From positions 260,829 through 324,828 of the forward strand of contig JACKPQ010000001.1 of assembly GCA_024233435.1 (NCBI GenBank): DNA of 64,000 nt. The letters are read 5' to 3'. Under the pieces are notes generated by a model. It made no database searches and had not been told where the DNA came from. It saw only the letters and a program-made list of their open reading frames with translations. Each line of letters begins with the position of its first letter. The first letter of the stretch is position 1. This document shows, one piece after another, positions 24,987 through 41,091 of this stretch. Source of the stretch: Chlamydiales bacterium (lineage in GTDB: Bacteria; Chlamydiota; Chlamydiia; Chlamydiales; JACKPQ01). The position numbers and the translations under genes are program-made.

Positions 24987-25062
24987 GCCCCTTGCGTTTA
25001 ATTAAATTTCTCGATAATCTTAAGTGTTTAGTAGTACAGTTGTCAACACATCAGGAGAAACA

Positions 25063-25416: not shown

Positions 25417-26477
25417 AAGATAAGGTAGATGCGCTTCTTGCGCGTTTTAACGAGATTGAAAGTGCTCTTGGTGATCCTGGGGCGCTTTCTGATCAAAAGC
25501 GATATAAAGAGTTAACCCAAGAGCACTCCTACCTATCTAATGTTAAAGATGTCCATGATAAGCTGAAGAAGGCGAAGGAGCAGCTTGCTGAAAATCGTGA
25601 GTTGCTAAAATCAGAATCTGATGAAGAGTTTCAGGGCATTATCAAAGATGAAATTGAAGTTTTAGAGACGCTTGTTCCTAAACTTGAACAAGAACTCGAA
25701 AGTCTACTTGTTCCGCCAGATCCCCATGATAATAACAATGTGATTTTAGAAATCCGTGCCGGTACCGGTGGCGATGAAGCGGCTTTGTTTGTAGGGGATT
25801 GCGCGCGCATGTACCGCTTATATGCAGACAAAAAGGGATGGAAATCTGAATTGCTGTCAGCATCCCACTCAGAGCAGGGTGGATATAAGGATTTTAGCGT
25901 TGTACTCTCAGGGCCTAACGTGTATCGATTAATGCGATTTGAGGCTGGTACACACAGAGTTCAGCGCGTTCCTGACACCGAGACTCAAGGACGTGTGCAC
26001 ACTTCAGCGATTACTGTGGCTGTATTGATGGAGCCTGACGAGGAAGAAGAAATTGATATTGATGAGAGTGATCTAAAAATCGATACCTATCGCGCTTCTG
26101 GGGCAGGTGGCCAACACGTTAATACTACAGATTCTGCAGTACGTATTACACATATCCCTACAGGAGTTGTTGTCTACTCACAAGAGGAGCGCTCGCAGCA
26201 TAAAAATAAAGCGAAATGCTTGCGCCTACTCAAGGCTAAAATTGCTGATGAACAGAGGCGCAAATCAGAGGCGAAAATGTCTTCTGAGCGTCTATCGCAA
26301 ATCGGCACTGGAGATCGATCGGAGCGCATTCGCACTTATAATTACCCTCAAAACCGTGTGACTGATCACCGCATCAACAAAACCCTTTATAAGCTCGACC
26401 AGGTGATGGAAGGGGATCTAGATGAATTCACTGAGGCCTTAGTCGCGGAAAACTATGCCAGACAGCTTGCCAACTGA
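25413..26477 (+). CDS. prfA: Peptide chain release factor 1
   Basis: [23 protein letters not shown] (GGQ motif). [18 protein letters not shown] places the codon-recognition tripeptide where RF1 has it. GTGA overlap with rpmE. Confidence 0.95.
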
Positions 26478-27063
26478 GATTGATTTCCTAGACTGCCGCA
26501 TTCGGTGGAATAATTCAACGTTGCTGCCTCGTGTAGAGACAGAATTTTTGCCCGAGCATGCTCTGCCCTATTTAGAAGCTGGGAAAGTTGCGTGGGATAT
26601 TTGTTGTGGCACCGGGTGTATCGGGCTTGCAATTAAAAAACTCATGCCAAGTCTTCATGTGACATTATCAGATATTGAGCCTCGGGCTGCTGCGTTGGCA
26701 AAAAGCAATGCTCAGCTGAATAATCTCGATGTTACGGTTCTATGCGGAGATCTTTTTGAGCCCTTCATTGGTCGCTGTGATTATCTTTTTTGCAATCCTC
26801 CGTATGTGACTGAATTGGAATATGGCGCATTAGAGCCAAGCGTTTTGAGTAACGAGCCAAAACTAGCATTGGTTTCAGGGCCGAGCGGACTGGAGTTTTA
26901 CAAGCGGATTCAAAAAGAAATGGGGCCGTATTTGAATCAAAATGCAAAATTATTTTTTGAGATTGGCACAGGTCAAGGGCCTGCTCTTCAAAAGATTTTT
27001 GGCAGCGGACAGGTGATTCAAGATTTAGCTGGTCATGATCGTTATTTCATTCTTGTAACCTAG
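26455..27063 (+). CDS. prmC: Release-factor glutamine N5-methyltransferase, short form
   Basis: SAM motif [10 protein letters not shown] and catalytic NPPY (LFCNPPYV). Only 202 aa. The start lies inside the prfA 3' end. Confidence 0.8.
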
Positions 27064-27088
27064 AATGTAGTATGCTATACTGGTGCAG

Positions 27089-28381
27089 ATGTTTGGTAAG
27101 TTAACTGAAAAGTTTAGTGATCTCTGCGCTTCCTTGCGTGGCAAGAAGCATTTAAGCGAAGATAATATCGCCGATGCTGTGCGTCAGGTGCGCCTGGCTT
27201 TGCTCGATGGCGATGTCAGCTACAAGGTTGTGTCGCGCTTTGTCGCTCGCGTAAAGGAAAAAGCATTAGGCGCCAACGTGTTGAAAAGCGTTGATCCAGG
27301 CGAGCAGTTCATCAAGCTTGTTCACGACGAGCTCGTTGAGCTGATGGGAAAAGATGAGGCGAGTTTGCGTTTAAATGGCAAGCCGTCGGTGATCATGGTT
27401 TGTGGGTTGCAAGGATCTGGTAAGACAACCACTTGCGCTAAGCTTGCAAATTATTTGAAGAAGCAGGGCAAGAGCGTGGCAATTGCAGCGCTTGATTTGC
27501 AAAGGCCTGCGGCGATTGATCAACTCGAGACGCTAGGTAAACAGGTTGGTGTCAACGTGATTGCAATGCGAGATAGCGATCCGGTCACCGTAGCTAAACA
27601 GGCGATGAAAACAGATTGCGATGTGCTGATCTGTGATACAGCTGGGAGATTGCACATTGATGAAAAATTGATGGCTGAGCTCAAGGCTGTCAAAGAGGTG
27701 TTAAAGCCTCATGAAGTGCTCTTTGTTGCGAGTGCTGCCATTGGGCAGGATGCTGTGAAAACAGCCAGCGAATTTGATGAGCAAATTGGAATGACGGGTT
27801 CGATTTTGACAATGCTCGATGGCAATGCCAGAGCAGGTGCTGCGATCTCAATTTTGGATGTCACTGGCAAACCTCTTAAATTTGAGGGCGTTGGTGAAAA
27901 GATTGATGATCTGCAACTATTCAATCCGCAGTCAATGGCTGATCGGATTTTAGGGTTTGGCGATGTGATCAACTTGGTCAAAAAAGCTGAAGCGCACATT
28001 GATGAGAAGCAAGCCAAAGAGCTTGAAGCGAAAATGAAAAAGGCCTCATTTACGTATGAGGACTACTTGTCGCAAATGAAAATGATGCGAAAAATGGGCT
28101 CACTTAAAGGTCTGTTGAGCATGATGCCTGGAGCATCGAAGCTCGGCGATTTGGATTTGCCTGAGAAAGAGATGCAACGCGTCGGCGCAATCATTGAGTC
28201 GATGACGCCGAAAGAGAGAACGGGAATTGATGAGCTGCTGCCGCCGAGAAGGTTGCGTATTGCAAAAGGAAGTGGCACAAATATTGACCAAGTGAATAAA
28301 CTGGTGAAGAGTCATAAACAAATGAAAAGCCTGATGAAAAAAACGAAAGGCATGAAAAATCTAATGAAGATGGTGAAGTAG
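27089..28381 (+). CDS. ffh: Signal recognition particle protein
   Basis: GLQGSGKTTT, DTAGR and the Met-rich M domain. First ATG at 27089 (the ORF opens at GTG 27083). Confidence 0.95.
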   Translation: MFGKLTEKFSDLCASLRGKKHLSEDNIADAVRQVRLALLDGDVSYKVVSRFVARVKEKALGANVLKSVDPGEQFIKLVHDELVELMGKDEASLRLNGKPSVIMVCGLQGSGKTTTCAKLANYLKKQGKSVAIAALDLQRPAAIDQLETLGKQVGVNVIAMRDSDPVTVAKQAMKTDCDVLICDTAGRLHIDEKLMAELKAVKEVLKPHEVLFVASAAIGQDAVKTASEFDEQIGMTGSILTMLDGNARAGAAISILDVTGKPLKFEGVGEKIDDLQLFNPQSMADRILGFGDVINLVKKAEAHIDEKQAKELEAKMKKASFTYEDYLSQMKMMRKMGSLKGLLSMMPGASKLGDLDLPEKEMQRVGAIIESMTPKERTGIDELLPPRRLRIAKGSGTNIDQVNKLVKSHKQMKSLMKKTKGMKNLMKMVK

Positions 28382-28389
28382 GAGAAACA

Positions 28390-28665
28390 ATGTTAAAAAT
28401 TCGTCTTAGACAACAAGGTGCGCGCAATAGCAAAACGTACCGACTCGTGGTCACAGATGCGAAGAAGCCACGTGGTGGCGCTTACATCGAGTGCGTAGGT
28501 TCATATGCACCACAGTCAAAAGAAGAGAAAAATGCTGAGCTAAATGAAGAGCGTCTTTGCCACTGGATTGGCCAAGGGGCTGAGCTAACAGAAAGTGCTG
28601 AATCGCTTGTGAAGCGCTATGCACCTGCTGCGTATAAATTACGCCGCGAGCAAAAGGCTAAGTAA
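28390..28665 (+). CDS. rpsP: 30S ribosomal protein S16
   Basis: MLKIRLRQQGARNSKTYRLVVTDAKKPRGG is the canonical S16 N-terminus. Confidence 0.95.
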   Translation: MLKIRLRQQGARNSKTYRLVVTDAKKPRGGAYIECVGSYAPQSKEEKNAELNEERLCHWIGQGAELTESAESLVKRYAPAAYKLRREQKAK

Positions 28666-28670
28666 ACGGT

Positions 28671-29354
28671 TTGGATATCGACATTTTGTCGCTTTTTCCT
28701 GAGTACTTTGAAAGCCCGCTCAGCGTAAGCATGCTCAAGCGGGCAAGAGAAAAGGGACTTGTAAACATTGCGTGTGTTAACATCCGCGATTTTGCAACCG
28801 ATAAGCACAAGACAGTCGATGATCGCCCGTATGGGGGAGGCCCTGGCATGCTTTTAAAAGCAGAGCCGGTGGTTAAAGCCATTCGGTCGAGGAGAAGAGA
28901 GGGCACCCATGTTGTCTATCTTTCTCCACAAGGCAAGGCGCTCAATGCAAACAAGTGCCAAGAGCTTGCTAAGTGCAAGCACTTAGTGTTGCTATGTGGC
29001 CATTATGAGGGCGTTGATGAAAGAGCGATTGCCGCTGAGGTTGACGAAGAGATTAGCATTGGCGACTATGTCCTGACAAGCGGGATGCCGGCAGCAAATG
29101 TGGTCATTGATGCTACTGTGAGGTTTATACCTGGAGTGCTTGGCCACGAAGAGTCGGCAAGGTGTGACACATTTGGCGAGGTGGGTTTTGACAGCCCCCA
29201 CTACACACGCCCTGAAGAATTTGAAGCTGTCAAAGTGCCCGAGGTGCTTCTCGGTGGCAACCACGCCCAAATTGAAGCGTGGAGAAAAGAGCAAGGATTA
29301 AACAAAATGTCGCAAGTGAGGCCGGACCTGCTTGCAAAGGAGAAACAAACATGA
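28671..29354 (+). CDS. trmD: tRNA (guanine37-N1)-methyltransferase
   Basis: [18 protein letters not shown] and [10 protein letters not shown] motifs. TTG start. Confidence 0.9.
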
Positions 29355-29788
29355 ATGCAATCGTAGAAGAGCTTGTTCTAGAGCAGCTCAGAAAGGACAT
29401 TCCCGAATTTGAAGTGGGTGATACAGTGCGTGTGCACGTGCGAATCATCGAAGGTGATAAAGAGCGTATTCAAGCCCTGACTGGGACTGTGATTGCGAAA
29501 AAAGGAAGAGGAATTTCTGAAACCTTTTCAATTTATCGAGTAGCCTATGGAATTTCCATGGAGCGTGTCTTTCCTCTTCATAGCCCACGTGTTGCGAAAA
29601 TTGAAGTTTTGCGCAAAGGTAAAACGCGTCGCTCTAAGCTTTACTTCCTCCGTGGAACGCAAGGTAAAAAAGCTCGCTTGCAAGAGCGCATCTTGATGAA
29701 AAAAGACGGTAAAGTTGCACCTGTCGTTGATGAAATTGAGGAAGAGATTCCTCCAGCATCTGAAAACGACAATCCTGTTGCAGAATAA
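29351..29788 (+). CDS. rplS: 50S ribosomal protein L19 with an acidic C-terminal extension
   Basis: [25 protein letters not shown]...FRV.. is the L19 core. ATGA overlap with trmD. The longer ORF-track start is rejected. Confidence 0.9.
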
Positions 29789-30386
29789 CTTCGAGCGAGA
29801 GCTAAATGATCGGGGATATCACCTGGTCGCAGGTGTTGACGAAGCTGGACGAGGGCCTTTAGCAGGCCCTGTTGTTGCAGCTGCGTGCATTTTGCCTCTC
29901 GACCTCAGAATAGAAGGTCTTAATGACAGCAAAAAGCTCACCCCAAAAACAAGGGCTGAGCTTTTTTTATTTCTTACCAGTCATCCAGCTATTCAATTTG
30001 GTATAGCCGAATGCTCTGCTCAAGAAATTGATGAGATCAACATTTTACAAGCCTCCCTCGAGGCGATGAAACGCGCTCTTTTGCAGCTCAGTCTAGTCCA
30101 TTACGCTCTTATTGACGGAAACAAGTGTCCCAACATCCATATCCCATGCCAAGCCATTATCAAAGGAGATAGCCTTTCTCCCTCAATTGCCGCAGCCTCG
30201 ATTTTGGCCAAAGAGACCCGCGATGCCCAAATGCTGAAATATCACGAGCAGTACCCCCAATATAACTTTGCTAAGCACAAAGGCTACCCAACCAAGGAAC
30301 ACATTGAGGCTCTTGCGCAGCATGGGCCAGCCCCAATTCATAGACGTTCTTTTGGTCCCGTCAATAAATTGACATCATCTCTATGA
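29778..30386 (+). CDS. rnhB: Ribonuclease HII (start uncertain: TTG 29778, ATG 29730 or 29715)
   Basis: [17 protein letters not shown] catalytic motif, plus DSKKLT and GYP..H. Confidence 0.85.
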
Positions 30387-30404
30387 CCTAGGTATAATCA
30401 GTCC

Positions 30405-31241
30405 ATGGCAAGACGCAGCATGACAGCATATGGTAGGGCAAGTGGGGGTGGCTATCAAATTGAAATTCACTCCGTAAATCGCAAAGGCCTTGAGATTAAC
30501 CTCAATGTGCCTCGCGAGCTTTTGTTTTGTGATATTGAGATTCGCAATACGATTAAAGAATATATTCACCGTGGAACCATTTTTGTGCGCATCAGTCGTG
30601 AAAAAGGGGAGTCGCTTGATTGCGAGCTGCCGAGCAAGGAAGCTTTAAGCGCCATTTTCAAGCACTTTATCAAAATAGGTTTTGATAAAAGTGAAATCAC
30701 ACTACCCTTTCTTTGTGAGCGTTACAGTGAAGCGAGTATTGCTCCTTCTGAGCCAGATAGCAAAGCGATTTTGAAAGGAGTATCCCAGGCAATTAATCAG
30801 CTTATCCACATGAAACAGAAAGAGGCCGAGCATCTCGTTGACGACATCAAAGAGAGGCTCCATGGATTGCAGTTGGGTGTCAAAGCTCTAAAAGAAGCAG
30901 CCCAAAGCGCCCCAGAGGCGCTCAGGCGAAAGCTAGATGATCGTTTAACAATGCTTGGCATTCCTCAAGAAGATGTAGCAAAAGAGGTGGTTCTATTTGC
31001 AGATAAATGCGATGTCACAGAAGAAATTGTGAGGCTCTGCTCTCACTTTAATCAATTTGATAGCCACCTTAAATCAAAGGAAATCTCAGTTGGCAGAACA
31101 CTTGATTTTTTGCTTGTTGAAATGATGCGTGAGTTGAATACCATTGGGGCAAAAGCGATTTTGCACGAAATGACAGATGCGATCCCCATTTTAAAAGCCG
31201 AAGCTGAAAAGATCCGTGAACAGGTGCAAAACATTGAGTAA
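30405..31241 (+). CDS. yicC: YicC-family protein (stress-induced, endoribonuclease family)
   Basis: N-terminal SMTAYGRA and C-terminal DFLLVEMMRELNTIGAKA match the YicC N- and C-terminal domains. Confidence 0.8.
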   Translation: MARRSMTAYGRASGGGYQIEIHSVNRKGLEINLNVPRELLFCDIEIRNTIKEYIHRGTIFVRISREKGESLDCELPSKEALSAIFKHFIKIGFDKSEITLPFLCERYSEASIAPSEPDSKAILKGVSQAINQLIHMKQKEAEHLVDDIKERLHGLQLGVKALKEAAQSAPEALRRKLDDRLTMLGIPQEDVAKEVVLFADKCDVTEEIVRLCSHFNQFDSHLKSKEISVGRTLDFLLVEMMRELNTIGAKAILHEMTDAIPILKAEAEKIREQVQNIE

Positions 31242-31785
31242 GGGAAAATTATTTGTAATTAGCGCTCCCTCTGGGTCTGGGAAGACAACACTTGCCCACA
31301 TGCTCGTTGAGCGTCACCCCTCGAAGATCGAGCAGAGCATCTCTTGCACAACAAGGCAGAAAAGAGATGAAGAGATACACGGTCGGCACTACCATTTTGT
31401 AGATCGCGATGAGTTTGAACAAAAGCGCTCCCAAAATGCTTTTCTAGAGTGGGCAGAGCTTTATGGCAACCTCTATGGAACGCTTAAGAGCGAAATAAAA
31501 AGAATCACCGATAGTGGCAAGCATGCGCTGCTTGTCATCGATACACAGGGCGCTGAGCAGCTCATGAAAAGCGCCGATGCGACCTTTATTTTTATCGAGC
31601 CGCCTTCTATGCAAGAATTAGAAAGCCGCCTAACTAAGCGAGGAGCTGAAAAGCTCAGTGAGAGGCTGTGTCTTGCTAAAAAAGAGCTGGAAAAAGCCAA
31701 GCTTTACGACTATCGTATTTGTAACGATGAATTAGAAAGCGCATGCCAAGAATTAGAAAAGATCATTTTAGGAGATGAAGCATGA
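31216..31785 (+). CDS. gmk: Guanylate kinase (start GTG 31216 or TTG 31234)
   Basis: P-loop SAPSGSGKTTL, plus TTR..R..E..G..Y.F. Confidence 0.9.
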   Translation: MNRCKTLSKGKLFVISAPSGSGKTTLAHMLVERHPSKIEQSISCTTRQKRDEEIHGRHYHFVDRDEFEQKRSQNAFLEWAELYGNLYGTLKSEIKRITDSGKHALLVIDTQGAEQLMKSADATFIFIEPPSMQELESRLTKRGAEKLSERLCLAKKELEKAKLYDYRICNDELESACQELEKIILGDEA

Positions 31786-32015
31786 AAAAACCAAAACTCA
31801 CAAACGAGATTTTGACAAAACTCTTTCGCAATAACTTTGAGCTTGCTCTGTATGCGATGGAAATTGCACGCCGCAACATCAAAGCTGGCAAAGAATTTAC
31901 ACTCGAGTCACTACTTACCGAGGTGCAAAATCACCCGCTGAAAGGTGATTTAGAAGAGCTTTTGGCTTCAAATAAACGAGCTGATGAAGCAAAGGCCGCT
32001 GAGGATGTTGCCTAA
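31782..32015 (+). CDS. rpoZ: Probable RNA polymerase omega subunit
   Basis: NNFELALYAMEIARRNIKAG resembles the omega motif NRFDLVLVAARRARQ. The gmk-rpoZ linkage is common. Confidence 0.55.
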   Translation: MKKPKLTNEILTKLFRNNFELALYAMEIARRNIKAGKEFTLESLLTEVQNHPLKGDLEELLASNKRADEAKAAEDVA

Positions 32016-33648
32016 GAGGGTTCTTATAACAGCCGCTTTGCCCTACGCAAACGGCCCGCTGCACTTTGGACACATTGCCGGTTGTTATCTGCCAGCGGAT
32101 GTGCATGCGCGCTTTCAGCGCATGCTGGGCGTGAAAACAGCCTTTATCAGTGGATCTGACGAGTATGGCGTCGCAATCACCTTAAGCGCTGAGCAAGAGG
32201 GGCGTAGTCCCCAAGAGCATGTCGATATCTATCACAAGATCAATCAAAAACTGTTCGAGCAATTGAACATTTCATTTGATCACTACTCTCGCACAACCAC
32301 ACCCATCCACACCAAAACAGCCCAAGAATTTTTCCTCACCCTCCATAAAAACGGCTACATTGAAGAAAAAGAAACCGAGCAACTTTTTTCCGAGGCTGAT
32401 AATCGCTTTTTAGCCGATCGCTATGTTATTGGGACTTGCCCAAGATGCAAATACCCTGAAGCCCGGGGTGATGAATGCACATCTTGTGGGGCTTCATACG
32501 AGGCTACAGATCTTATTGATCCTCGATCAAAAATCTCGAATGCACCACTCATCCTCAAAAAAACGACCCACTGGTTTATGCGCTTTGATAAATTTAAAGA
32601 TCAGCTACAAGAGTGGATTAAAGATAAGCCCTGGAAGAATAACGTTTTAAAATTCGCTCAGCACTACATTGATAACCTTCAGCCGCGCGCCATTACACGC
32701 GATTCAGAGTGGGGTATTCCTGTACCACTCGAACATGCAAAGGGCAAAGTCCTCTACGTGTGGTTTGATGCGCCCATCGGTTACATCTCCATGACCAAAG
32801 AATGGAGTCCTGAGCATTGGAAAGACTTTTGGCTTGATCTCGATACAAAACTGATCAACTTTGTTGGCAAAGACAACATCCCTTTTCACGCAATTTTCTT
32901 CCCAGCAATGCTCATGGGCACAAATGAGCTTTATAAACTCGTCGATGATCTTCCTGCTAATGAATTCTTGCAGCTCGAAGGACGTCAATTTAGCAAATCA
33001 GCAAACTGGACCATTGATCTTAACCGCTTTTTTCAAAACTTCACAGCCGATCAAATCCGCTATGTCCTTGCTGCAAATGCCCCCGAGTCTCAAGATAGTG
33101 AATTCACTTGGATTGACTTTAAGAATCGCTGTAACTCTGAGCTAGTTGGCAAACTAGGCAATTTTGCCAACCGCTCGCTGACATTTCTCAATCGCCAGCT
33201 CGAAGGCACAGCGCCAAAAGCCACCCTCTCACAAGAAGACGAGACCTTCCTATCCCAATGCCATGACCTGCTAAGCCAAATCAAAGATTCCTATACTCAC
33301 TATCATCTGCGCAAAGCCTCTCAGCTTCTCATGGAGCTTGCCCAAACCGGCAACGTCTATTTTGACCACAAGCAACCCTGGAAGGACAAACAAAGCGATG
33401 CCACCAAAGCAACCCTTTATTGCTGCCTGGAGTGTCTCAAATGTCTAGCGATCGCCGCCTATCCCATCATGCCTGTGGCAGCACAAGGCCTTTGGAAGCT
33501 TCTTGGATTTACATCTGAAATGACCATCTGGGATCAACCACCATTTCCCCCAGGCCAAAAACTCCCCGAGCCATCAGTCCTCTTCCAAAAAGTCGACGAC
33601 GACCTCATCGCCTCCGAAATCGAAAAATTACATTTATTTCTTAACTAA
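32005..33648 (+). CDS. metG: Methionyl-tRNA synthetase
   Basis: HIGH motif (PLHFGHIAG), KMSKS-like RQFSKS, and zinc knuckle CPRCKYPEARGDECTSCG. I prefer ATG 32005 over 31984. Confidence 0.95.
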   Translation: MLPKRVLITAALPYANGPLHFGHIAGCYLPADVHARFQRMLGVKTAFISGSDEYGVAITLSAEQEGRSPQEHVDIYHKINQKLFEQLNISFDHYSRTTTPIHTKTAQEFFLTLHKNGYIEEKETEQLFSEADNRFLADRYVIGTCPRCKYPEARGDECTSCGASYEATDLIDPRSKISNAPLILKKTTHWFMRFDKFKDQLQEWIKDKPWKNNVLKFAQHYIDNLQPRAITRDSEWGIPVPLEHAKGKVLYVWFDAPIGYISMTKEWSPEHWKDFWLDLDTKLINFVGKDNIPFHAIFFPAMLMGTNELYKLVDDLPANEFLQLEGRQFSKSANWTIDLNRFFQNFTADQIRYVLAANAPESQDSEFTWIDFKNRCNSELVGKLGNFANRSLTFLNRQLEGTAPKATLSQEDETFLSQCHDLLSQIKDSYTHYHLRKASQLLMELAQTGNVYFDHKQPWKDKQSDATKATLYCCLECLKCLAIAAYPIMPVAAQGLWKLLGFTSEMTIWDQPPFPPGQKLPEPSVLFQKVDDDLIASEIEKLHLFLN

Positions 33649-33689
33649 CTGTAAAACAATATGTTATCTAATGATGCTGAAGAGAGTTC

Positions 33690-33717
33690 TTGACATTAAA
33701 TATTAACCATGCATAAT
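33690..33717 (+). promoter_or_regulatory. Candidate sigma70 promoter of the second EEP gene
   Basis: TTGACA (33690-33695), a 16-nt spacer, then CATAAT (33712-33717). AAGGAG SD precedes ATG 33749. Confidence 0.45.
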
Positions 33718-33748
33718 TAAACTGTCTATAACCATAAAGGAGATCGCC

Positions 33749-34741
33749 ATGCCAATAAATTACAAAGTCGCAACATATAATACTGCATCAAATAGTGATT
33801 ATGCGCTCATACATGAGCAGAAGTATTCTAGAGATGCAAAATTGGGCCAAGTAGCATTTCGTGCTTTAGCAGATATGGGTATTGATTTCTTCTGCCTGCA
33901 AGAGGCTACCACATATGAAAAAGGCGATGTTTTTTTTGAAAAAAGCTCATGGATAAAAGATGATATACATTCCTCCCACACTAAAAGGTATGACTATATC
34001 CATAATACAAAGGGAATAGCTCTTGTATGGAATAATGAACAGTTTACCATAGTGGATAACTCAGTAAGGCGAAAGCAAGACTACCTTGTTGCTGATTTTT
34101 ATGATAAAACAAATCACAAAATCATACGCCTTGCTTCTATTCATATCAGCGGTTATTCGTTTAACGACCATCTTGGTAAGCAAAAATCTGAGAAAGAGTT
34201 TCAGGAGGATTTAGCAGACCAACACAAAACTGTTAGTCAGTTAATTCAAGACCTTAAATCAGATAACCGAGCAGATTTCACAATTATTGGCTCAGATACG
34301 AATTCAATTCCGGCTATTTATCCTGGACTACACCAAGCATTTGAATCGTCTGGGTATTCGTATGATAAAGAAAATTTTGAGCCAACAAATTATTTTGCTT
34401 TTTCGGCGTCTCCTAATAATAGTTGTTATAGAAGACTTGATTATATTTTTAACTCGTGGTTTCTGACTGCAAAACAATTAGATAGGCCTGATATAGGTTC
34501 ATTTAAGCTTAAGGACACCGAAAACCCAAGTGATCATATACCCGTTATTTATTCGATGACACAGAGTTTCATTTCGAGGTTGTTAAAGGTCCTTTGCGAT
34601 TTTTTTACTTGGAGGCCTTCAGTTGAAATTGAGCAATACAAAAGTTATAAAGATGAAACGCAGGGTTATAGCAGTATACTGGACCCCACAATGAGCTTTG
34701 TTGATGGACATGTGTCTAAAACTATAAAGATAAAGAGATAA
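33749..34741 (+). CDS. Endonuclease/exonuclease/phosphatase (EEP) family protein, AT-rich, effector-like
   Basis: EEP motifs VATYNTAS, FFCLQEAT, ASIHISG, GSDTNS and PSDHIPV. No signal peptide. The first 60 nt contain 20 G+C, against 30/60 in two core-gene samples I counted. Confidence 0.8.
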   Translation: MPINYKVATYNTASNSDYALIHEQKYSRDAKLGQVAFRALADMGIDFFCLQEATTYEKGDVFFEKSSWIKDDIHSSHTKRYDYIHNTKGIALVWNNEQFTIVDNSVRRKQDYLVADFYDKTNHKIIRLASIHISGYSFNDHLGKQKSEKEFQEDLADQHKTVSQLIQDLKSDNRADFTIIGSDTNSIPAIYPGLHQAFESSGYSYDKENFEPTNYFAFSASPNNSCYRRLDYIFNSWFLTAKQLDRPDIGSFKLKDTENPSDHIPVIYSMTQSFISRLLKVLCDFFTWRPSVEIEQYKSYKDETQGYSSILDPTMSFVDGHVSKTIKIKR

Positions 34742-34789
34742 GTATATTACTTTAGCTTTTTGAAGTTTGGCATAGGTCTTCTCTTATGC

Positions 34790-35013
34790 CAAAACTTTAC
34801 ATCTGACCTGATCCGCTATGCTCTCGCTACCAATGTGCCTGAATCCCCAGATAGCAGATTTATCTGGCTTTGAGTGCGTTGGCAAGCTGGGCAACGTCTA
34901 TTTTGACCACAAGCAGCCTAGGAAGAGGAAACACAAGCGATGCCACTAAAGCAACTCTCCATTCCTACGACGACCACATCGCCTCTGAAATCGAAGAGCT
35001 TCGAATCAATTAA
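34790..35013 (+). pseudogene. Decayed duplicate of the metG 3' end
   Basis: Three blocks align by hand to metG 33034-33117, 33139-33162 plus 33349-33425, and about 33597-33648, at roughly 80-90% identity. There are two internal deletions and in-frame stops. The copy ends in its own TAA at 35011-35013. Confidence 0.8.
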
Positions 35014-35239
35014 GCTATTCGTGACCGTCTGCTATAATGAAAGGCATGGGATTCCCACCAAAATTCACTCTTTCTAAGCCAATTTGAAACTCTTTAAAAT
35101 TGATGAGTATAAAGGACCAAACTGGGCGTCGTATGGCACTAACTTCTAACATCAATCGGACCGTGGGGGGCTGGAAACTTGTCTCAAGTTGTGAAGATAA
35201 GAGAATAAGACCGCTTAGGCTTTTTCAAACAGGCGTGTG

Positions 35240-36505
35240 TTAATGACTATAGCCGGTTGAGAGAAGGCGGCTACCATTGCAATCGAGGATCAGAAAGCGG
35301 TGAGCTTCTGTAGGCTGAGGCCATTGAAAACGCTCTAATTGTTTGTTGATGACTTCTTCTGCAATGGGGTGTTTTCTCGATTTGTTTCTCTTGCCTAGCT
35401 CGATTTTGTTTGGATGGAAGACAACAAGTGTGACTAGAGCATGATAATTTTCAGCTATGCGAATGATTTTTTCCCTCATCTCGCGTCGAAGATTTGTTGC
35501 ATCCCAGACGATTCGTTCTTTTTTACGCAGTTTTTCTTTTAGGCTCTCCATAGCGATGTTCAAAACTAGCGCGTTATTGCTTTGGTCTCCACGGTTTTTT
35601 GAGTGTAGCTCGCGTAGATCGTCTAGGGAAATTAAAGTGTGATCGGGAAGGGTTTGTTGAGCCCAAGTGCTTTTGCCTGATCCTCCTATTCCGCAGGTTA
35701 GAACTAACTCTGGATGGTGCTCTAAGTGCGGATATGCACGGGCAACAGCCTCATATGGAGTATGGATTAATCCATTTTCAAAGTCTTTAGCTCCATATCC
35801 TAATACATAGTCTATCAGCTCTGTAGAAGAGTTGGGCAACTCGTTTTTGATGGTGTCAGGCCATTCGCTATAAGGCCCTGCTTTTCCCCAAAGGCCATAC
35901 TCTTCAACATAGAGCCGGAACATATCGATATGCCCAACTTGCAGCTCTTTATCAATACATAAACGCCCGAGCATGTCAGCTTTTGTAAGGTAATACAGAA
36001 GTTCGAGGTCGGCTTGTCGAGCTAGCTTGTAGTACAAGGGCTTTCCAGCACCAGTAATGACTAGACGTTTTGGCACGATGTGGGCTGCTACAAGCTGCAG
36101 AATTTGATAGAGAACCCTATATGGGAGCCCACAATCTAGCAGGAGGGGCGCCAAATAAGAAGCTCCCATTTCCTCATGGTGTGGTGCCACAATACGCATC
36201 TGGCCATCTATTTCTTTTTCACGGGTTGTTAATGGTTTTGCGATATCATGAAAAGCTGTGGCCAGTATAAGAGCTAGCCGCCTCTGTGGCGTCAAAACAG
36301 CTTGTTCTTGGTTGAGAAGCTTGTAGAGTTCTTGAAGAACCCAGGAAGTGTGAACATAAACATCACCCTCAGCGTGCCAGTGAGGATCTTGAGATGTGTC
36401 TTTAAGCTTGCATAGCAAGGGGATAAAGGGAGAAAAGGTCTCTACAATTTCTTCTAAGGAAGGATTTTCACCATTGCTTATTCTATTTAATAAGATTTTA
36501 AGCAT
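35240..36505 (-). CDS. Bifunctional end-healing enzyme: N-terminal HD phosphoesterase plus C-terminal P-loop polynucleotide 5'-kinase (HD-Pnk architecture)
   Basis: HD domain signatures HWHAEGDVYVHT, FHDIAKP and HHEEMG. Kinase signatures GIGGSGKST, SLDDLR and WDATNLRREMR (T4 Pnk-like). ATGCTTAA overlap with the ligase gene. Confidence 0.8.
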   Translation of the reverse strand: MLKILLNRISNGENPSLEEIVETFSPFIPLLCKLKDTSQDPHWHAEGDVYVHTSWVLQELYKLLNQEQAVLTPQRRLALILATAFHDIAKPLTTREKEIDGQMRIVAPHHEEMGASYLAPLLLDCGLPYRVLYQILQLVAAHIVPKRLVITGAGKPLYYKLARQADLELLYYLTKADMLGRLCIDKELQVGHIDMFRLYVEEYGLWGKAGPYSEWPDTIKNELPNSSTELIDYVLGYGAKDFENGLIHTPYEAVARAYPHLEHHPELVLTCGIGGSGKSTWAQQTLPDHTLISLDDLRELHSKNRGDQSNNALVLNIAMESLKEKLRKKERIVWDATNLRREMREKIIRIAENYHALVTLVVFHPNKIELGKRNKSRKHPIAEEVINKQLERFQWPQPTEAHRFLILDCNGSRLLSTGYSH

Positions 36506-37145
36506 TTGGGTCCTTTAGCTTGTTAGGCACAATCTCCAACTCCATCCAGTGTTTGTTACTTTGTACATGGCCTTTTCGAACCCATTTAGCTACAGACTTA
36601 TGAAAATCACAATATGAAAATGCGTCTCGTATTCGCACAATGTATCCTTCGATCTCTTCGGTATTGAAATTCAAATTTCGAATTAGCTGCTCATTCCACA
36701 CCCCTTCAAAAAGAGTTCTTGGCGTCGGGATTCCTAAAAGCTGTGCCCATTCTAGGGTTTCATCCCAAGATAGGCAAATATTTTTCTCGTTCCAAACTGA
36801 AAATAAATAAAAGAACCCCTCCAAATTATCGTAGGCAATCGAATGTGTGGCATAAACGTTTTCACCACAGAGGCGCCAATTGTCTGGGATTTCTTGTTGA
36901 ATCCGGGCGTGGAGTTGTTTGGCTAGGCTTCTTGAAGGGTGATGCCCGCTGTCAATTGAGCGAGCATGCATTCCATCTGTGTAGAGGGTTGTATTTTCTC
37001 CATCGAGCTTTTCGGTAATGACAACTTGCTTATTTTTAAACTGATTTGTGTGAGTCATCTTGATGTCGTCATCGGTATTTCCAGGCGACCAGGGAAGATG
37101 GGGTGTTCGCGGGTATTTCCACCTCATATTGTGTTTGGGTTCCAT
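36498..37145 (-). CDS. ATP-dependent RNA/polynucleotide ligase, minimal nucleotidyltransferase domain (Rnl2-like superfamily)
   Basis: Covalent NTase motifs I EKLDGEN, III LCGENVYA, IIIa FYLFSVW, IV EGYIVR and V VAKWVRKGHV, with a KYPRTPHL N-terminus. I prefer start ATG 37145 (7 nt after the recD2 stop) over the ORF-track 37283. Confidence 0.8.
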   Translation of the reverse strand: MEPKHNMRWKYPRTPHLPWSPGNTDDDIKMTHTNQFKNKQVVITEKLDGENTTLYTDGMHARSIDSGHHPSRSLAKQLHARIQQEIPDNWRLCGENVYATHSIAYDNLEGFFYLFSVWNEKNICLSWDETLEWAQLLGIPTPRTLFEGVWNEQLIRNLNFNTEEIEGYIVRIRDAFSYCDFHKSVAKWVRKGHVQSNKHWMELEIVPNKLKDPNA

Positions 37146-37152
37146 ACCAACA

Positions 37153-39333
37153 TCACGCTGAATCAACAGAGGCGCTACAAGCAGACAGATCAAAAGAAAG
37201 CATAAGCTTGTCCATAAGACCTGTATGGCGCAAGAAGGCTTCGTTGTTTTTAATGGCAATGGCCAGGGCTTTTTTGGTGCCAATGAGAATCACGCGTTTT
37301 TTGCCACGGGTGATGCCGGTATAGAGCAAATTGCGGTAAAGAAGTTTGAAGTGGGAAGTATGCACTGGGATCACAACGCAGGGGCACTCGCTTCCTTGGT
37401 ACTTGTGAATTGAAACAGCGTAGGCTAAGACAAGCTCATCGAGCTCGGAAAAATCATAGGGGACTGTGAGCCCTTCAAAATCGACTTGGACCTCTTGATC
37501 AACCGTGTCAATTTTAACAATGCGTCCCACATCTCCATTGAAGACCTTTTTGTCATAGTTATTGCGGATTTGCATCACCTTATCCCCAAAATGAAAGCGG
37601 CGACCCATGCGCATAAGGGGGTTTTTGGAAGGGTTTAGCGTTGACTGAAGCACATGGTTGAGATTTTCTGTCCCAATAGGGCCTTTTTTCATAGGTGCAA
37701 GAACTTGAATATCATTAATAGCATCATAGCCATATTTTTCAGGAATACCTTTAGACACGAGGAAGTTGATTTTAGCTAAAATTTGCTCGGGCTCTTGTTC
37801 TTCGATAAAGGCAAAATCGCTTTTTTCTTCATATTCAAGATCAGGAAAGTAGCCTTTGTTGATGCTGTGGGCGCTGCGGATGATTTTTGAGCCTCGGGCT
37901 TGGCGAAAAATTTGAGTCAGACGTGTAACAGGGAGGACTTGTGACTCAATAATGTCTTTGAGAACCTTACCAGGGCCAACGCTTGGCAGCTGGTCAATGT
38001 CGCCAATAAGGATAACGCGCGCATTATCTGGGACAGCTTTTAGAAGGCTATACATCAACTGGGTGTCGATCATCGAAGCTTCGTCAATGATCAACAGGTC
38101 GCATGAAAGAGGATTTTCGCGGTTGCGTTTGAAGCCACCTTGTTGAAAATCAACCTCAAGAATGCTGTGAATGGTAAAGGCTTTACGACGGGTGATTTCG
38201 CTCATACGTTTAGCAGCGCGCCCTGTTGGAGCTGCAAGGATGACCTTGCTTGTAATTTTACTCAATATGGCAAGAATAGCTCGAGTGATCGTGCTCTTTC
38301 CTGTACCGGGGCCTCCAGTTAGAACATGCATCTTTTCACTGACGCTTTTTTTCACACCGTCGACCTGCTCGGGGGCTAAGTTAATGTAGAGTTTCTCCTG
38401 GACCCATTCGATGGCCTTTTCAATATCTAGATCACGGATAGAGCAGGGCTGGTCTGTTAAACGCTTGAGTTCGCGCACAATTCCAAGCTCTGCCATGAAA
38501 AGCGGCTTGATCCAAATTCGGCCTTGATCTTCAATAATGTGCTCATCTGTGACGAGTTTGGGCAAAGCATCTTCCACAAGCTTTGATTCAACTTCTAGCA
38601 TCTCGGTGACCCGCTCTAAAAGTTCATCTTTTGGAAAGCAGGTGTGGCCATCGCTACTGAGTTCCCAAAGCATATATTCAATGGCAGCCTCGATACGTAC
38701 AGGTGCATCTTTTGGAACGCCCAGTTTTTCGGCGATGCTATCTGCAGTTTTAAATCCCACGCCGTGAATTTCACGCGCTAGGCGATAGGGGTTATCTTGC
38801 ACCATATCGATGGCATCGTCGCTGTATTTACGATAAATTTTTTGCGCAAAAGAAGGGCTAATGCCATGGCCGCGCAAAAAGATAATCACATCGCGGATTG
38901 CTTTTTGCTCGCCCCAGCAATCTTGAATTTTTACAACGCGCTTTTCGCCAATGCCCTCAATTTCAAGGAGGCGGTAAGGAGTTTGGTCAATCACCTCCAA
39001 TGTTTTTACACCAAAGGCTTGCACGATTCTTTGGGCATAAACAGGCCCAATACCCTTCACCATTCCCGATTCAAGATATTTTTGAATTCCGATTACATCA
39101 GCTGGATAGTCGACCTCGTAGCTTGCAACTTCAAATTGCCTCCCAAAGGTAGGGTGGTGTTTCCATATGCCCTTTGCCCTTATCTTTTCGCCTGGGATGA
39201 TGCCTGGCATAGGGCCGACAACACAAGTGAGATCGGTGCATCGAGGCTGCTTTACGCGAGCTACGGTAAATCCTGTGTCCTCGCTAGAAAAAACAATTGA
39301 TTCAACAGAGCCAAAAAGATCATCCTGTTCCAT
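37153..39333 (-). CDS. recD: RecD2-type (RecD/YrrC-like) SF1B DNA helicase
   Basis: Walker A LTGGPGTGKST, LIIDEASMI and ILIGDIDQLPSVGPG. N-terminal HhH region and C-terminal SH3-like domain. First ATG at 39333 (the ORF opens at TTG 39357). Confidence 0.9.
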   Translation of the reverse strand: MEQDDLFGSVESIVFSSEDTGFTVARVKQPRCTDLTCVVGPMPGIIPGEKIRAKGIWKHHPTFGRQFEVASYEVDYPADVIGIQKYLESGMVKGIGPVYAQRIVQAFGVKTLEVIDQTPYRLLEIEGIGEKRVVKIQDCWGEQKAIRDVIIFLRGHGISPSFAQKIYRKYSDDAIDMVQDNPYRLAREIHGVGFKTADSIAEKLGVPKDAPVRIEAAIEYMLWELSSDGHTCFPKDELLERVTEMLEVESKLVEDALPKLVTDEHIIEDQGRIWIKPLFMAELGIVRELKRLTDQPCSIRDLDIEKAIEWVQEKLYINLAPEQVDGVKKSVSEKMHVLTGGPGTGKSTITRAILAILSKITSKVILAAPTGRAAKRMSEITRRKAFTIHSILEVDFQQGGFKRNRENPLSCDLLIIDEASMIDTQLMYSLLKAVPDNARVILIGDIDQLPSVGPGKVLKDIIESQVLPVTRLTQIFRQARGSKIIRSAHSINKGYFPDLEYEEKSDFAFIEEQEPEQILAKINFLVSKGIPEKYGYDAINDIQVLAPMKKGPIGTENLNHVLQSTLNPSKNPLMRMGRRFHFGDKVMQIRNNYDKKVFNGDVGRIVKIDTVDQEVQVDFEGLTVPYDFSELDELVLAYAVSIHKYQGSECPCVVIPVHTSHFKLLYRNLLYTGITRGKKRVILIGTKKALAIAIKNNEAFLRHTGLMDKLMLSFDLSACSASVDSA

Positions 39334-39402
39334 GGGCGTTACTGTACATGAGCGCAAAGCCTATTGCAATAAAAAGTGATTACTGGCAGAATAAATGAAT
39401 AT

Positions 39403-39475
39403 TCCGGATTAGCTCAGTTGGTAGAGCAACGGACTGTTAATCCGTTTGTCGCTGGTTCGAGTCCAGCATCCGGAG
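39403..39475 (+). tRNA. tRNA-Asn (anticodon GUU)
   Basis: Hand-folded cloverleaf: acceptor TCCGGAT/ATCCGGA, D arm GCTC/GAGC, anticodon arm ACGGA-CTGTTAA-TCCGT, T arm GCTGG-TTCGAGT-CCAGC, discriminator G. CCA is not encoded. Confidence 0.95.
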
Positions 39476-40143: not shown

Positions 40144-41091
40144 ATGATGAGCCTAGAAACACAGCAAGAAAGAGTCAGAATTACGGCCTACTTTCAAGGT
40201 GAGACAGAAAATCAGAAGTCTTCTCTAACACTTGGCCGTGTAATTCTCCAACTTCCAGATTCTAAAACCAGAATCACCCTTCTACTCCCAAAGGAATCCG
40301 TTCACGAGAGATCTGAACCTCTCAAATTTTGTGTGAAAAGAGAGGGGAATTGGAGGGAAGAACAACTTGAAGGGCTCCGACTCACCGTAGAAAAAGCAAA
40401 TCGCTTTGGTATGACCATTTATGTTTTCAAACATGGTGAAAATGTAGGCCCGATGATCCGACATCAAGATGGTACTACCTGCCAGCAACCGACAGTAAAA
40501 CGCTCTGAAAGTAAAGTGCAGGTTACGCGACCTGCGAAAATCGAACCGGGAGCTCATTATCGTTTGGAGATTACTTCCACAAACGGATCCAGTGCTGAAG
40601 CCAATCTAATAAAGATTGAAGGACCAATTCAAAAATCAAAAACTATGGGTGATGATTCAAAACTTTTCCGGAACGTGTATCCATCCATTATGGATTTACT
40701 CCGCCAGAAAGTTTTGGATGCTGAGAATCTCGTAAAGAAGTCCGTAGACTACGCCGATACTATTACCTTTAAATCAAGATTTAATGAAGAATTAGCAAAA
40801 CAATCTATCCTTACTGCAATAAACGGACTACACAGCGAAAAACGTGGTCAACTTGAGAAAATGTGCGAAACAGATAACTCAACACAAAATATTCCACTTG
40901 GCAGAAAGGCAGTCAGCCTTTTTCTTCTAGCCCTAGAAAGGACTGATATTGGACAGTTGCTGCAAGATCAGCTAGAGGCTGCGGTTGGTAAGGATTACCC
41001 TATTCTACTTGGAATTGTCTACAATGATATATTAGTACCTTTTATTGATGAAATCAAATTCATGGCTAGACAATATGACAACGAAATCTAA
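40144..41091 (+). CDS. Hypothetical protein, 315 aa, bracketed by the direct repeats
   Basis: Long ORF with AGGAG upstream. The N-terminal half looks beta-rich and the C-terminal half helical. No motif recognised. Confidence 0.6.
   Translation: MMSLETQQERVRITAYFQGETENQKSSLTLGRVILQLPDSKTRITLLLPKESVHERSEPLKFCVKREGNWREEQLEGLRLTVEKANRFGMTIYVFKHGENVGPMIRHQDGTTCQQPTVKRSESKVQVTRPAKIEPGAHYRLEITSTNGSSAEANLIKIEGPIQKSKTMGDDSKLFRNVYPSIMDLLRQKVLDAENLVKKSVDYADTITFKSRFNEELAKQSILTAINGLHSEKRGQLEKMCETDNSTQNIPLGRKAVSLFLLALERTDIGQLLQDQLEAAVGKDYPILLGIVYNDILVPFIDEIKFMARQYDNEI

Follow-up and report, generated by a model that had tools for sequence, protein, structure and literature searches.

The metG/recD2 Locus and Its Features

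The window analysed here is a stretch of 64,000 nucleotides from the MAG of an uncultured chlamydia, whose strain is called W below and was compared with related contigs labelled L001–L028. Among them, L010 and L024 are the sister strains of W, 97–99% identical to it in both flanks, and L014, L018, L019 and L025 form the L014 type, a relative 88% identical in MetG. Between the intact metG gene and an RNA-repair gene pair, the window carries a single-gene cassette and the remains of three genes, arranged as follows.

31984–33648, forward strand: intact metG (554 aa from the first ATG; Pfam tRNA-synt_1g, E 1e-147)
33012–33627, forward strand: Repeat A, the portion of intact metG duplicated in the relic (blastn and repeat finder)
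33628–34764, forward strand: AT-rich single-gene cassette, comprising the new metG tail, promoter, RBS, EEP ORF and a spacer of about 23 nt of the EEP-HDK type
33690–33717, forward strand: sigma-70-like promoter, TTGACA-16-CATAAT (11/12 consensus match)
33749–34741, forward strand: gene for EEP_W, 330 aa, with a predicted EEP fold (AF2 and Foldseek)
34704–34764, forward strand: Repeat B, the last 12 codons and stop of EEP_W with the spacer of about 23 nt, aligning to 35171–35228
34765–35013, forward strand: Repeat A′, the decayed, 5′-truncated metG 3′ end (blastn and repeat finder; TAA at 35011–35013)
35014–35105, forward strand: relic of the ancestral metG-fic spacer and of the first 20 fic codons (81–83% nucleotide identity to L014, L018 and L025)
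35106–35170, no strand assigned: segment of 65 nt between the fic stub and the EEP stub
35171–35228, forward strand: Repeat B′, the 3′-end relic of an older, L024-type EEP allele with its spacer to HDK
35240–37283, reverse strand: right flank, with an HD-domain/Pnkp-like kinase gene (35240–36505) and an RNA ligase gene (36498–37283)

All homology of the W metG to other metG genes stops at 33626/33627. The collinear alignment with L018 (82.8%) ends at 33627, and identity to L024 is 98% through 33626 and about 67% beyond. The final seven codons of metG (33628–33648, LHLFLN and stop) are lineage-specific and continuous with the AT-rich cassette. A separate comparison of the 3′ 600 bp and the 5′ part of the gene had been proposed in order to see which copy of the metG end is foreign. 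The divergence was computed, and the 3′ part does not look foreign. It matches the sister strain at 98% identity, at 4-fold sites it diverges less from the L014 type (0.45) than the 5′ part does (0.59), and neither sliding identity nor 4-fold-site divergence against L018 breaks at 33012. By these sequence measures, a foreign origin of the present metG 3′ 600 bp is not detectable, except in the last seven codons, which have no metG homology.

The AT-Rich Cassette and the EEP_W Protein

The left edge of the cassette (33627) is the point where homology to L018 and L024 is lost, and its right edge is the start of the relic at about 34765. The GC content is 0.31–0.36, against 0.44 for the window, and the EEP ORF (GC 0.356; GC3 0.305, the median being 0.416) ranks lowest of the 31 window ORFs of at least 250 aa, which bears out the first-pass annotation of an AT-rich segment. 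The consensus-like promoter noticed at that stage can likewise be recognised in the sequence, followed by AAGGAG at 33737–33742, 7 nt ahead of the EEP ATG; the L024 allele has TTGACG-17-TATAAT at an equal distance from its own ATG.

The assignment to the EEP family rests on structure prediction, which supports the fold, and not on a profile match: EEP_W had no match in Pfam, NCBIfam or the PDB sequences at E up to 10, and PADLOC found nothing in it. Since the alignment holds just four sequences, the AF2 model is of moderate quality (pTM 0.71, pLDDT 62.7). Foldseek returned 144 PDB matches for this model at E up to 1e-3, of which the best 50 are all EEP proteins; the top matches (TM 0.5–0.6, E about 1e-10) include 3mpr, nocturnin, TDP2, ANGEL2 and INPP5B. 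The catalytic and metal-binding positions lie in the motifs YNT (N11), CLQE (E52), GSDTN (D183, N185), LDYIF (D231) and PSDH (D262, H263) and at H132, and the canonical residues (N, E, H, D-x-N, D, D-H) are conserved in every aligned allele. The link to PF03372 is transitive, through the profile relatives P0128–P0139, whose matches (E 1e-5 to 4e-4) lie close to the gathering score. EEP_W is accordingly predicted, on the model, to be a metal-dependent phosphoesterase of the EEP fold.

In addition, the family has a conserved C-terminal amphipathic helix (about 274–287) and a variable disordered tail. In the model, the first β-strand of the catalytic domain begins at residue 4 and there is no disordered N-terminal leader, which argues weakly against type III secretion of EEP_W; no signal peptide is apparent in the sequence. 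Comparison with the sister allele gives a dN/dS of about 0.28, so that the gene appears to be under purifying selection. The other EEP gene of the window (23038–24042) is not a recognisable paralogue (BLASTP E 7.6). The family is small and restricted to Chlamydiales, with four close homologues among 5.8e9 proteins. Its members L003, L008 and L028 lie between lepB and ileS. The region upstream of the W cassette resembles that of L003 with weak significance (7/500 shuffles), and its similarity to that of L008 is not significant. Metagenome and viral scans added one further locus of the L008 type and no viral contig carrying the family.

The Displaced 3′ End of metG

A blastn search of 34742–35100 against the window recovered four collinear blocks matching metG: 34771–34870 to 33012–33114 (68%, E 3e-9), 34871–34894 to 33138–33161 (79%), 34890–34966 to 33349–33424 (84%; E 4e-16 against the whole window and 1e-17 against metG alone) and 34967–34995 to 33596–33624 (93%). 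The last three segments (D1–D3) were also recovered by the independent repeat finder. The decayed duplicate described by the first-pass annotation behind the EEP gene is therefore real and far beyond chance (E 1e-17), and it does keep its own terminal TAA; several details have to be revised. The true start is not 34790 but about 25 nt earlier, at about 34765–34771; there are four blocks instead of three, with identities that vary from 68 to 93% by block instead of a uniform 80–90%; and three internal deletions, not two, are found, of 23 nt (33113–33135), 192 nt (33162–33353) and 171 nt (33425–33595). The proposed GGCAA microhomology holds for the 192-nt deletion, which is flanked by two GGCAA repeats, and not for the others. 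Relic-specific substitutions amount to about 14%, and their even spread over the codon positions (8/11/9) indicates neutral decay. Near its start, at 34768–34789, the relic contains a hairpin.

The ancestral context of this relic is preserved in the L014 type, where metG ends in EKLRSD and a stop and is followed directly by sequence homologous to window 34969–35104 (81% identity). That is to say, this part of the window corresponds to the tail of the relic, its stop, a spacer and the start of fic, and the suggestion that the relic is the displaced old metG 3′ end is upheld. It would have been contradicted by relatives that lack the EEP gene and still carry the relic; those without the gene have no relic.

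The Stubs of fic and of an Older EEP Allele

Downstream of the relic, a stub of a SoFic-like fic gene spans 35046–35105 and contains an in-frame stop. In tblastn it reads MGFPPKFTLSKPI*NSLKLM against MGFSPKFTLSKSISNSLRLI, and the L014 Fic itself matches SoFic in PADLOC with E 1.5e-58. The next 65 nt (35106–35170) gave no significant local alignment to fic, to any EEP allele or to their flanks; a 13-nt match, AAAATTGATGAGT, between window 35096–35108 and the L024-type EEP is indistinguishable from chance.

Then follow the last 12 codons of an older EEP gene, AGNLSQVVKIRE, with a stop (35170–35208). Repeat B′, to which they belong, is the left edge of a right flank 98.9% identical to the sister strains: L010 732–3448 and L024 10904–14317 align to the window gap-free from 35170 at 98.9%, and the EEP ORFs of both end inside the segment equivalent to 35171–35228. 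Repeats B and B′ align with a score of 18.5, compared with 8.2 ± 1.4 for shuffled sequences (0/2000 shuffles reach the score), and the two EEP 3′ ends are about 67% identical, equal to the identity of the full alleles.

The two repeat pairs are interleaved in the order A, B, A′, B′: metG 3′ end, EEP and spacer come first, and then metG 3′ end, fic, EEP 3′ end and spacer. By its sequence, the locus reads as two tandem versions of one locus. The segment had at first been taken for a first-time insertion of horizontally gained DNA, and this has to be given up, since an older EEP 3′ end with its spacer already sits at 35171–35228. The incoming DNA would thus have been another version of the same locus, which makes the event a displacement. 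The resident arrangement metG-fic-EEP-HDK was found in no genome examined; in the L014-type locus, fic is followed by an IS240 fragment and NUDIX genes. In the sister strain L024, alignments of the metG-EEP spacer (9877–10000) gave no significant evidence either of the old metG-fic spacer or of a fic remnant.

Such a composite could in principle be an assembly or binning artefact, in which reads of two co-occurring strains, e.g., an EEP type and a fic type, were joined. The sequence comes from a MAG, its run (SRR12358675) also contains a second member of the family, from a different chlamydia, and contigs of relatives often break at this locus. However, the structure of the relic zone is base-for-base identical in L001 and L002, two independent run assemblies that agree with the window over 14.4 kb and 5.1 kb and cover the zone from end to end. 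Moreover, the pieces of the relic have decayed: they carry about 14% unique substitutions, deletions and an in-frame stop and match no intact strain sequence, so that a chimeric join could not produce them. An artefact is therefore extremely unlikely.

Divergent Alleles in Near-Identical Sister Strains

L010 and L024 carry a different EEP allele at the same site, and the relic is absent from them. This allele is 50–55% identical to EEP_W in amino acids and 65–67% in nucleotides; in the flanks, metG is 98% identical and the sequence from 35170 on 98.9%. The breakpoints are sharp, at 33626 and 35170. The dS between W and the sister is 1.30 for EEP, compared with 0.070 for metG and 0.014 for HDK. 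Judged by these sequence distances, the EEP alleles appear far older than the strains carrying them, and horizontal exchange of the EEP gene, already suspected by the first-pass annotation, is supported both by its AT-richness and by the divergent allele in near-identical sisters.

The claim that the relic dates the event can also be retained. Since its specific substitutions (about 14%) exceed the flank dS of 0.014–0.07, the comparison supports a relic older than the split of W and its sister strains. Upstream, the differences between W and L024 fall in clustered patches, evidence that homologous recombination is active; no clear L018-like patches were found upstream of metG in either strain.

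Chimeric Ancestry of the Relic

The relic does not have a single ancestry. Positions 34765–34868 group with the L014-type lineage, and positions 34869–34998 with the W/L024-type metG. In the part corresponding to 33004–33105, 10 states are common to the relic and the L014 type and differ from W/L024, and L018-only sites number just 2; several of the shared states are derived, as polarised with L020 and L021. In 33144–33627 the counts are reversed, 1 against 14. With about 27 informative sites in all, the switch is significant (Fisher p = 7.7e-5), and the relic itself appears to be chimeric, its first block being of another lineage's type and the remainder of the resident metG type.

This bears on an in-situ origin, in which the metG 3′ end, fic, EEP and spacer were duplicated in tandem, the two units decayed differentially and the EEP allele was replaced later. 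The order A, B, A′, B′ is what a tandem duplication yields, and relic blocks 2–4 are near the intact copy (84–93%). However, block 1 has derived synonymous states in common with the L014 type and not with the intact copy next to it, the two EEP 3′ ends differ as much as two full alleles do, and unit 1 has no trace of fic. Because block 1 and the EEP 3′ ends require at least one import from another lineage anyway, an origin by local duplication is considered unlikely.

The metG/recD2 Junction as a Site of Gene Exchange

When the metG-recD2 interval was compared among relatives, as had been recommended, its content proved different in every one examined.

L011: empty, gene ends overlap
L012: 540 bp, ORF-free
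L015: single ORF
L013: 5.5 kb
L021 and L022: AAA_14 ATPase and PIN/Phd
L020 and L014 type: fic
L026: nrdBA

The HD/Pnkp-like kinase and RNA ligase genes of the right flank (Pfam HD, AAA_33 and RNA_ligase; partial NCBIfam match to bacter_Pnkp) are themselves cargo of the interval, since they are missing from it in L011, L012, L015 and L021. The convergent metG/recD2 junction is a hotspot of gene gain across a whole clade, with cargo of defence or toxin type, such as the SoFic-like Fic, PIN/Phd, the AAA_14 ATPase and the RNA-repair pair.

Integration into the 3′ end of metG by DNA supplying a replacement 3′ end, as the first-pass annotation proposed, is right as to the layout and the displaced end, and not as to an island of the integrase type. 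Such an island would have entered site-specifically with an attP that carried the replacement end, and would have lost its integrase gene later. An intact gene, cargo and a 5′-truncated displaced 3′ end are the classic attL/attR layout, direct repeats of the target gene do surround the cargo (33012–33627 and 34765–35013), and an attR, with element sequence left of the core and recipient sequence right of it, would also be chimeric, as observed. On the other hand, no integrase, transposase or recombinase Pfam domain is recorded in any gene of window 25065–39439, i.e., 8 kb upstream and 4 kb downstream, in agreement with the earlier remark that no integrase remains. The cassette holds one ORF and no recombinase gene or remnant; this gene and the roughly 23 nt of native spacer behind it give no pointer to an integrase. 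The bracketing repeats are 620 bp long, decayed and interleaved with a second repeat pair. Furthermore, the cargo ends on the right with native EEP-HDK spacer, and past the relic comes the 3′ end of an older EEP gene, from which it follows that what came in was this same chromosomal locus in another copy. Neither an integrase nor a duplicated gene end accompanies the lepB/ileS members of the family, and the family is on no viral contig. There is no tRNA gene at the site, the nearest being tRNA-Asn at 39402, and an Rfam search of 33400–35400 gave no known RNA family. A former genomic island is thus a quite unlikely origin.

Proposed Course of the Displacement

With a probability of roughly 60%, window 33628–35228 is a scar left by a cassette displacement that took place without an integrase at the metG/recD2 recombination hotspot. 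The best explanation offered by the analysis is displacement by homologous and illegitimate recombination, as at the Rhs and T6SS effector loci. What the sequences show directly is the relics with their ancestral context, the two interleaved pairs of repeats, the chimera, a polymorphism of alleles with sharp breakpoints, and the hotspot; in what order things happened, through what intermediate and from which donor, we infer.

A copy of about 1.76 kb of the same locus, from a related chlamydia, would have been placed in tandem upstream of the resident version. It would have consisted of the metG 3′ 620 bp, the AT-rich EEP gene with its promoter and the EEP-HDK spacer of about 23 nt. One joint would have formed through metG homology, the crossover being visible as the ancestry switch inside the relic, and the other would have been illegitimate, joining the spacer (34764) to metG position about 33004 (34765). 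The scar thus shows a homology anchor in the metG 3′ end, a non-homologous joint at 34764/34765 and, downstream, an orphaned resident module of metG 3′, fic 5′ and EEP 3′ relics in ancestral order. A circularised fragment may have entered by a Campbell-type single crossover, or the recombination may have been unequal or of the homology-facilitated illegitimate kind. A single crossover has one weakness: the intact copy downstream of the crossover does not have the donor (L014-like) states predicted by it; these may have been lost afterwards, as the core gene was homogenised or as one copy converted the other. No donor with an EEP_W-like allele was found in any of the collections searched.

After the displacement, the upstream metG copy would have remained functional, and the displaced unit, i.e., the metG 3′ end, the SoFic-like fic and the older EEP allele, would have decayed by at least four deletions and about 14% substitutions. 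This decay would have removed most of the homology able to loop the new EEP gene out again. Later, ordinary homologous recombination in the population may have made the core flanks uniform right up to the borders of the non-homologous insert, and the locus would now have at least two ancient alleles, the whole insert being one of them.

Where alleles are far older than the strains carrying them, the genes are usually ones that face hosts, phages or competitors. It is speculated, although this is doubtful, that the EEP family is a cassette for host interaction or defence, with alleles of about 50% divergence kept under balancing or diversifying selection and spread between the 3′ ends of core genes by integrase-free displacement, the sites being metG/recD2 here and lepB/ileS elsewhere and the anchor being the neighbouring housekeeping gene. 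If true, this would be an effector-swapping system of the Rhs/T6SS style in obligate intracellular bacteria.

Comparison with Known Systems

The locus keeps a base-level record of how an uncultured obligate intracellular chlamydia exchanges single genes without mobile-element machinery, with the order of events preserved in the layered stubs of three genes. The protein exchanged belongs to a small non-Pfam EEP family whose alleles are older than the strains. EEP_W resembles the EEP (DNase I-like) superfamily, PF03372, in predicted fold and in all canonical catalytic positions; unlike typical members, it has no sequence match, and its relatives are a handful of proteins, all from Chlamydiales MAGs.

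In layout, the locus resembles the islands of tyrosine recombinases at the 3′ ends of tRNA and protein genes, which also show an intact gene, cargo and a 5′-truncated duplicate of the 3′ end. It differs from them in the absence of a recombinase, in a cargo of one gene (1.1 kb) and in a duplicate of about 620 bp; in addition, the DNA that came in terminates in native EEP-HDK spacer and took the place of an older EEP allele.

[quoted passage not shown] 2017, PMC5361080; see also Jackson et al. 2009, cited therein). As at those loci, homology to a conserved upstream part of a gene anchors the new module, the former 3′ part and cargo are pushed downstream as orphaned, decaying stubs, no integrase takes part, complex arrays spread between strains by ordinary homologous recombination, and the alleles are old and highly divergent. 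In contrast to those cases, a housekeeping aminoacyl-tRNA synthetase gene serves as the anchor in place of a polymorphic toxin, what varies is an independent gene with a promoter of its own instead of a toxin tip fused to the anchor, the immunity gene is absent, so that there is no obvious selection to keep the orphan, and the organism is an obligate intracellular chlamydia. In summary, the scar reflects recombination at a hotspot of gene exchange and not a novel type of mobile element; both the mechanism and the type of scar are already known in other bacteria, and the case mainly extends known principles to a new lineage.

Layout of the metG–EEP region

The features of the region are as follows:

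31984-33648, +, metG, intact, with every MetRS domain found
33690-33717, +, promoter TTGACA-16-CATAAT, 11/12 match
33749-34741, +, EEP (endonuclease/exonuclease/phosphatase fold) ORF, 330 aa
35046-35105, fic stub (first 20 codons), with an in-frame stop inside

The 100 nt between metG and the EEP ORF has 31% GC, AAGGAG lies 7 nt upstream of the ATG, and the ORF itself (GC 0.356) has the lowest GC3 (0.305) among the 31 window ORFs of at least 250 aa, in agreement with the first-pass annotation of an AT-rich segment with its own consensus-like promoter. The 498 nt downstream contains no ORF, and beyond it are the convergent genes of an HD/Pnkp-like kinase (HDK), an RNA ligase and RecD2. Protein comparison with 31984-33648 also showed that MetG of the window clade is about 545 aa long and has no PF01588 tRNA-binding domain at its C-terminus, which most other chlamydial MetG (660–690 aa) carry.

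The metG relic and its ancestry

Behind the EEP ORF lies a decayed metG 3′ end (the relic), of which 34771-34995 was aligned by blastn to metG 33012-33624 in four collinear blocks of 68, 79, 84 and 93% identity; the top E-value was 4e-16 against the whole window and 1e-17 against metG only, and a repeat finder found the same pairs again. The similarity noticed by hand is significant, with four blocks at 68–93% in place of three at 80–90%, and three internal deletions (23, 192 and 171 nt) in place of two, of which only the 192-nt one is flanked by GGCAA repeats; the terminal TAA (35011-35013) is present as described. Of 205 aligned positions, 28 carry changes specific to the relic; these fall 8/11/9 on the codon positions, a distribution that indicates neutral decay. 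At the 5′ end of the relic (34768-34789), about 27 nt downstream of the EEP stop, there is an imperfect hairpin, GGCATAG-N8-TTATGCC, a candidate that may nowadays terminate the EEP gene.

In the L014-type relatives (L014, L018 and L019 are the same, and L025 has the full locus), MetG is 88% identical to that of the window, and the DNA is collinear for 9.4 kb at 82.8% identity until the alignment ends at 33627. Their metG ends in ...EKLRSD* and is directly followed by a homologue of window 34969-35104 (81% identity), that is, the relic tail (...EELRIN*), stop, 32-nt spacer and the start of a 303-aa Fic gene, whose product is SoFic-like (PADLOC E 1.5e-58). Since an orthologous fic is likewise behind metG in L020, a 78% relative, the metG–fic arrangement is ancestral for the group. 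Judged from these alignments, the relic is the ancestral metG 3′ end, displaced as had been proposed, and the derived part is the 7-codon tail (LHLFLN*) of the intact window metG.

At metG coordinates 33004-33105, the relic and the L014 type together differ from the window and the sister contig L024 at 10 sites and the L014 type alone at 2, while at 33144-33627 the counts are 1 and 14. This ancestry switch (Fisher p = 7.7e-5, about 27 informative sites) falls at the 23-nt deletion, and several shared states of the first block are derived, as polarised by the outgroups L020 and L021. The relic is a chimera, left by a crossover within the stretch of metG homology or else by gene conversion at a later time. 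The replacement metG 3′ end had been ascribed to the incoming DNA; its 4-fold-site divergence from L018 is 0.45, compared with 0.59 for the 5′ part, with no excess over the backbone. The best reading of its present sequence is core genome that was homogenised up to the insert edge.

Allele exchange and the tandem structure

Two sister strains, L010 (an NCBI MAG) and L024 (a Logan contig of 17.9 kb), have a metG 98% identical to that of the window (32 mismatches in 1640 nt) and match it without gaps at 98.9% identity from 35170 as far as the data reach. Between these flanks are the end of metG (545 aa, ...EKLKIT*), 124 nt, an EEP gene of 313 aa, 31 nt and HDK; no relic is present at this locus, as is also true of relatives that lack the EEP gene, and nothing of the old fic spacer was recognised in the L024 spacer. 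Their EEP allele is only 50–55% identical in protein and 65–67% in DNA. The dS between window and sister is 1.30 for EEP, 0.070 for metG and 0.014 for HDK, so the alleles are far older than the strains; dN/dS of about 0.28 means that both are under purifying selection. The contrast with the flanks indicates that the insert was swapped as one block, and horizontal exchange of the AT-rich EEP gene, as first suggested, is borne out.

Upstream of metG (24251-33626), the differences between window and L024 are bunched in patches (e.g., 25125-25392, 26039-26162, 28012-28258, 29015-29126, 29792-29903 and 30071-30170), which is the usual sign of homologous recombination, here a mosaic in an uncultured environmental chlamydia. 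A second hypervariable patch beside an EEP gene, 24088-24297, lies between the first EEP gene (23038-24042, PF03372) and a rhomboid-like gene, where window and L024 are only about 60% identical, against 97–99% in the flanks.

Window 34704-34764, which takes in the final 12 codons of the EEP ORF, the stop and about 23 nt beyond, has a homologous counterpart at 35171-35228 (score 18.5; shuffles 8.2 ± 1.4; 0/2000 reaching 18.5). Because the sister EEP ORF ends within the shared right flank, 35171-35208 reads as an EEP 3′ stub. The order is as follows:

Unit 1: metG 3′ (A), EEP body, EEP 3′ end and spacer (B)
Unit 2: metG 3′ relic (A′), fic stub, 65 nt, EEP 3′ stub and spacer (B′), HDK

The 65 nt (35106-35170) matched none of the sequences tested. 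The order A-B-A′-B′ represents two versions of one locus, head to tail; a purely in-situ duplication fits less well. What came in was not a dedicated mobile element but this very locus, as a copy of about 1.76 kb taken from a relative that already had the EEP gene between metG and HDK. Integration of foreign DNA at the metG 3′ end thus stands as regards the displaced relic, and has to be revised as regards what came in, an older EEP 3′ end lying beyond the relic.

A false assembly join is excluded, since two independent run assemblies agree with the window base for base over the entire zone. An integrase-borne island also fits less well: no integrase, transposase or tRNA gene is present at the window metG/recD2 site, the lack of an integrase having been noted before. 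The most direct account of the chimera would be a circularised fragment and a Campbell-type crossover, and a linear event of homology-facilitated illegitimate recombination with gene conversion would be nearly as good. Among the relatives searched, neither a donor nor an intact metG–fic–EEP–HDK haplotype was found.

The metG/recD2 hotspot

The convergent metG/recD2 junction has different content in every sampled relative: it is empty in L011 (gene ends overlapping by 4 nt), and holds 540 bp without an ORF in L012, one ORF in L015, 5.5 kb of genes in L013, an AAA_14 ATPase with PIN/Phd in L021/L022, fic in L020, fic, an IS240 fragment and NUDIX genes in the L014 type (L025), and nrdBA instead in L026. 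The IS240 fragment (DDE_Tnp_IS240, L025 11322-11645) is behind fic, where recD2 synteny is lost, and is probably why short-read contigs of the L014 type break at fic. At 35240-37283 (−), the HD-domain/Pnkp-like kinase and RNA ligase genes overlap by 8 nt as an RNA-repair-like pair, which occurs in the interval only in the window and sister strains and is therefore also hotspot cargo. Just past recD2 and tRNA-Asn, a 315-aa ORF (40144-41091, +) that is matched by nothing in Pfam, NCBIfam or PADLOC ranks second from the bottom of the window in GC3 (0.339) and is a candidate for a further acquired gene. Toxin–antitoxin pairs (HicA-like, L026 4225-4835; PIN/Phd, L021 4443-5116) are at different insertion points in the otherwise conserved prfA...metG row.

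The EEP cargo protein

The EEP ORF has no sequence match in Pfam, NCBIfam, PADLOC or PDB, and a search of 5.8e9 proteins gave only four close homologues, each from a Chlamydiales MAG; in L003, L008 and L028 the gene is instead between lepB and ileS, and every family member is AT-rich relative to its own locus. The AF2 model (pLDDT 62.7, pTM 0.71) matches EEP-fold structures only (E ~1e-10), including 3mpr, nocturnin, TDP2, ANGEL2 and INPP5B, and conservation extends to the canonical N, E, H, D-x-N, D and D-H residues. Profile search of 1.84e9 representatives gave 169 relatives; the nearer of them have weak hits to PF03372, and one carries the annotation of an EEP protein from Ca. Neptunochlamydia. 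Paralogy with the other EEP gene of the window (23038-24042) was rejected. The catalytic domain begins at residue 4, leaving no obvious N-terminal leader, and is followed by a conserved amphipathic helix (~274-287) and then by a tail that is variable and disordered. The protein may be an effector; since other cargo of the hotspot is of defence or toxin type, a defence-related nuclease would be an equally open option.

Comparison with known systems

On the whole, the initial observation is confirmed and its interpretation partly supported: the locus shows, in good preservation, a type of recombination scar that is already known, with a little-known EEP family as its cargo. The closest systems are the Rhs, CDI and T6SS effector loci, in which an incoming module, anchored through homology upstream, pushes aside the resident 3′ part and leaves it as an orphan (Kirchberger et al., 2017, PMC5361080). 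Unlike in those loci, the anchor here is a housekeeping gene, there is no immunity gene, and the cargo is encoded separately, under a promoter of its own.
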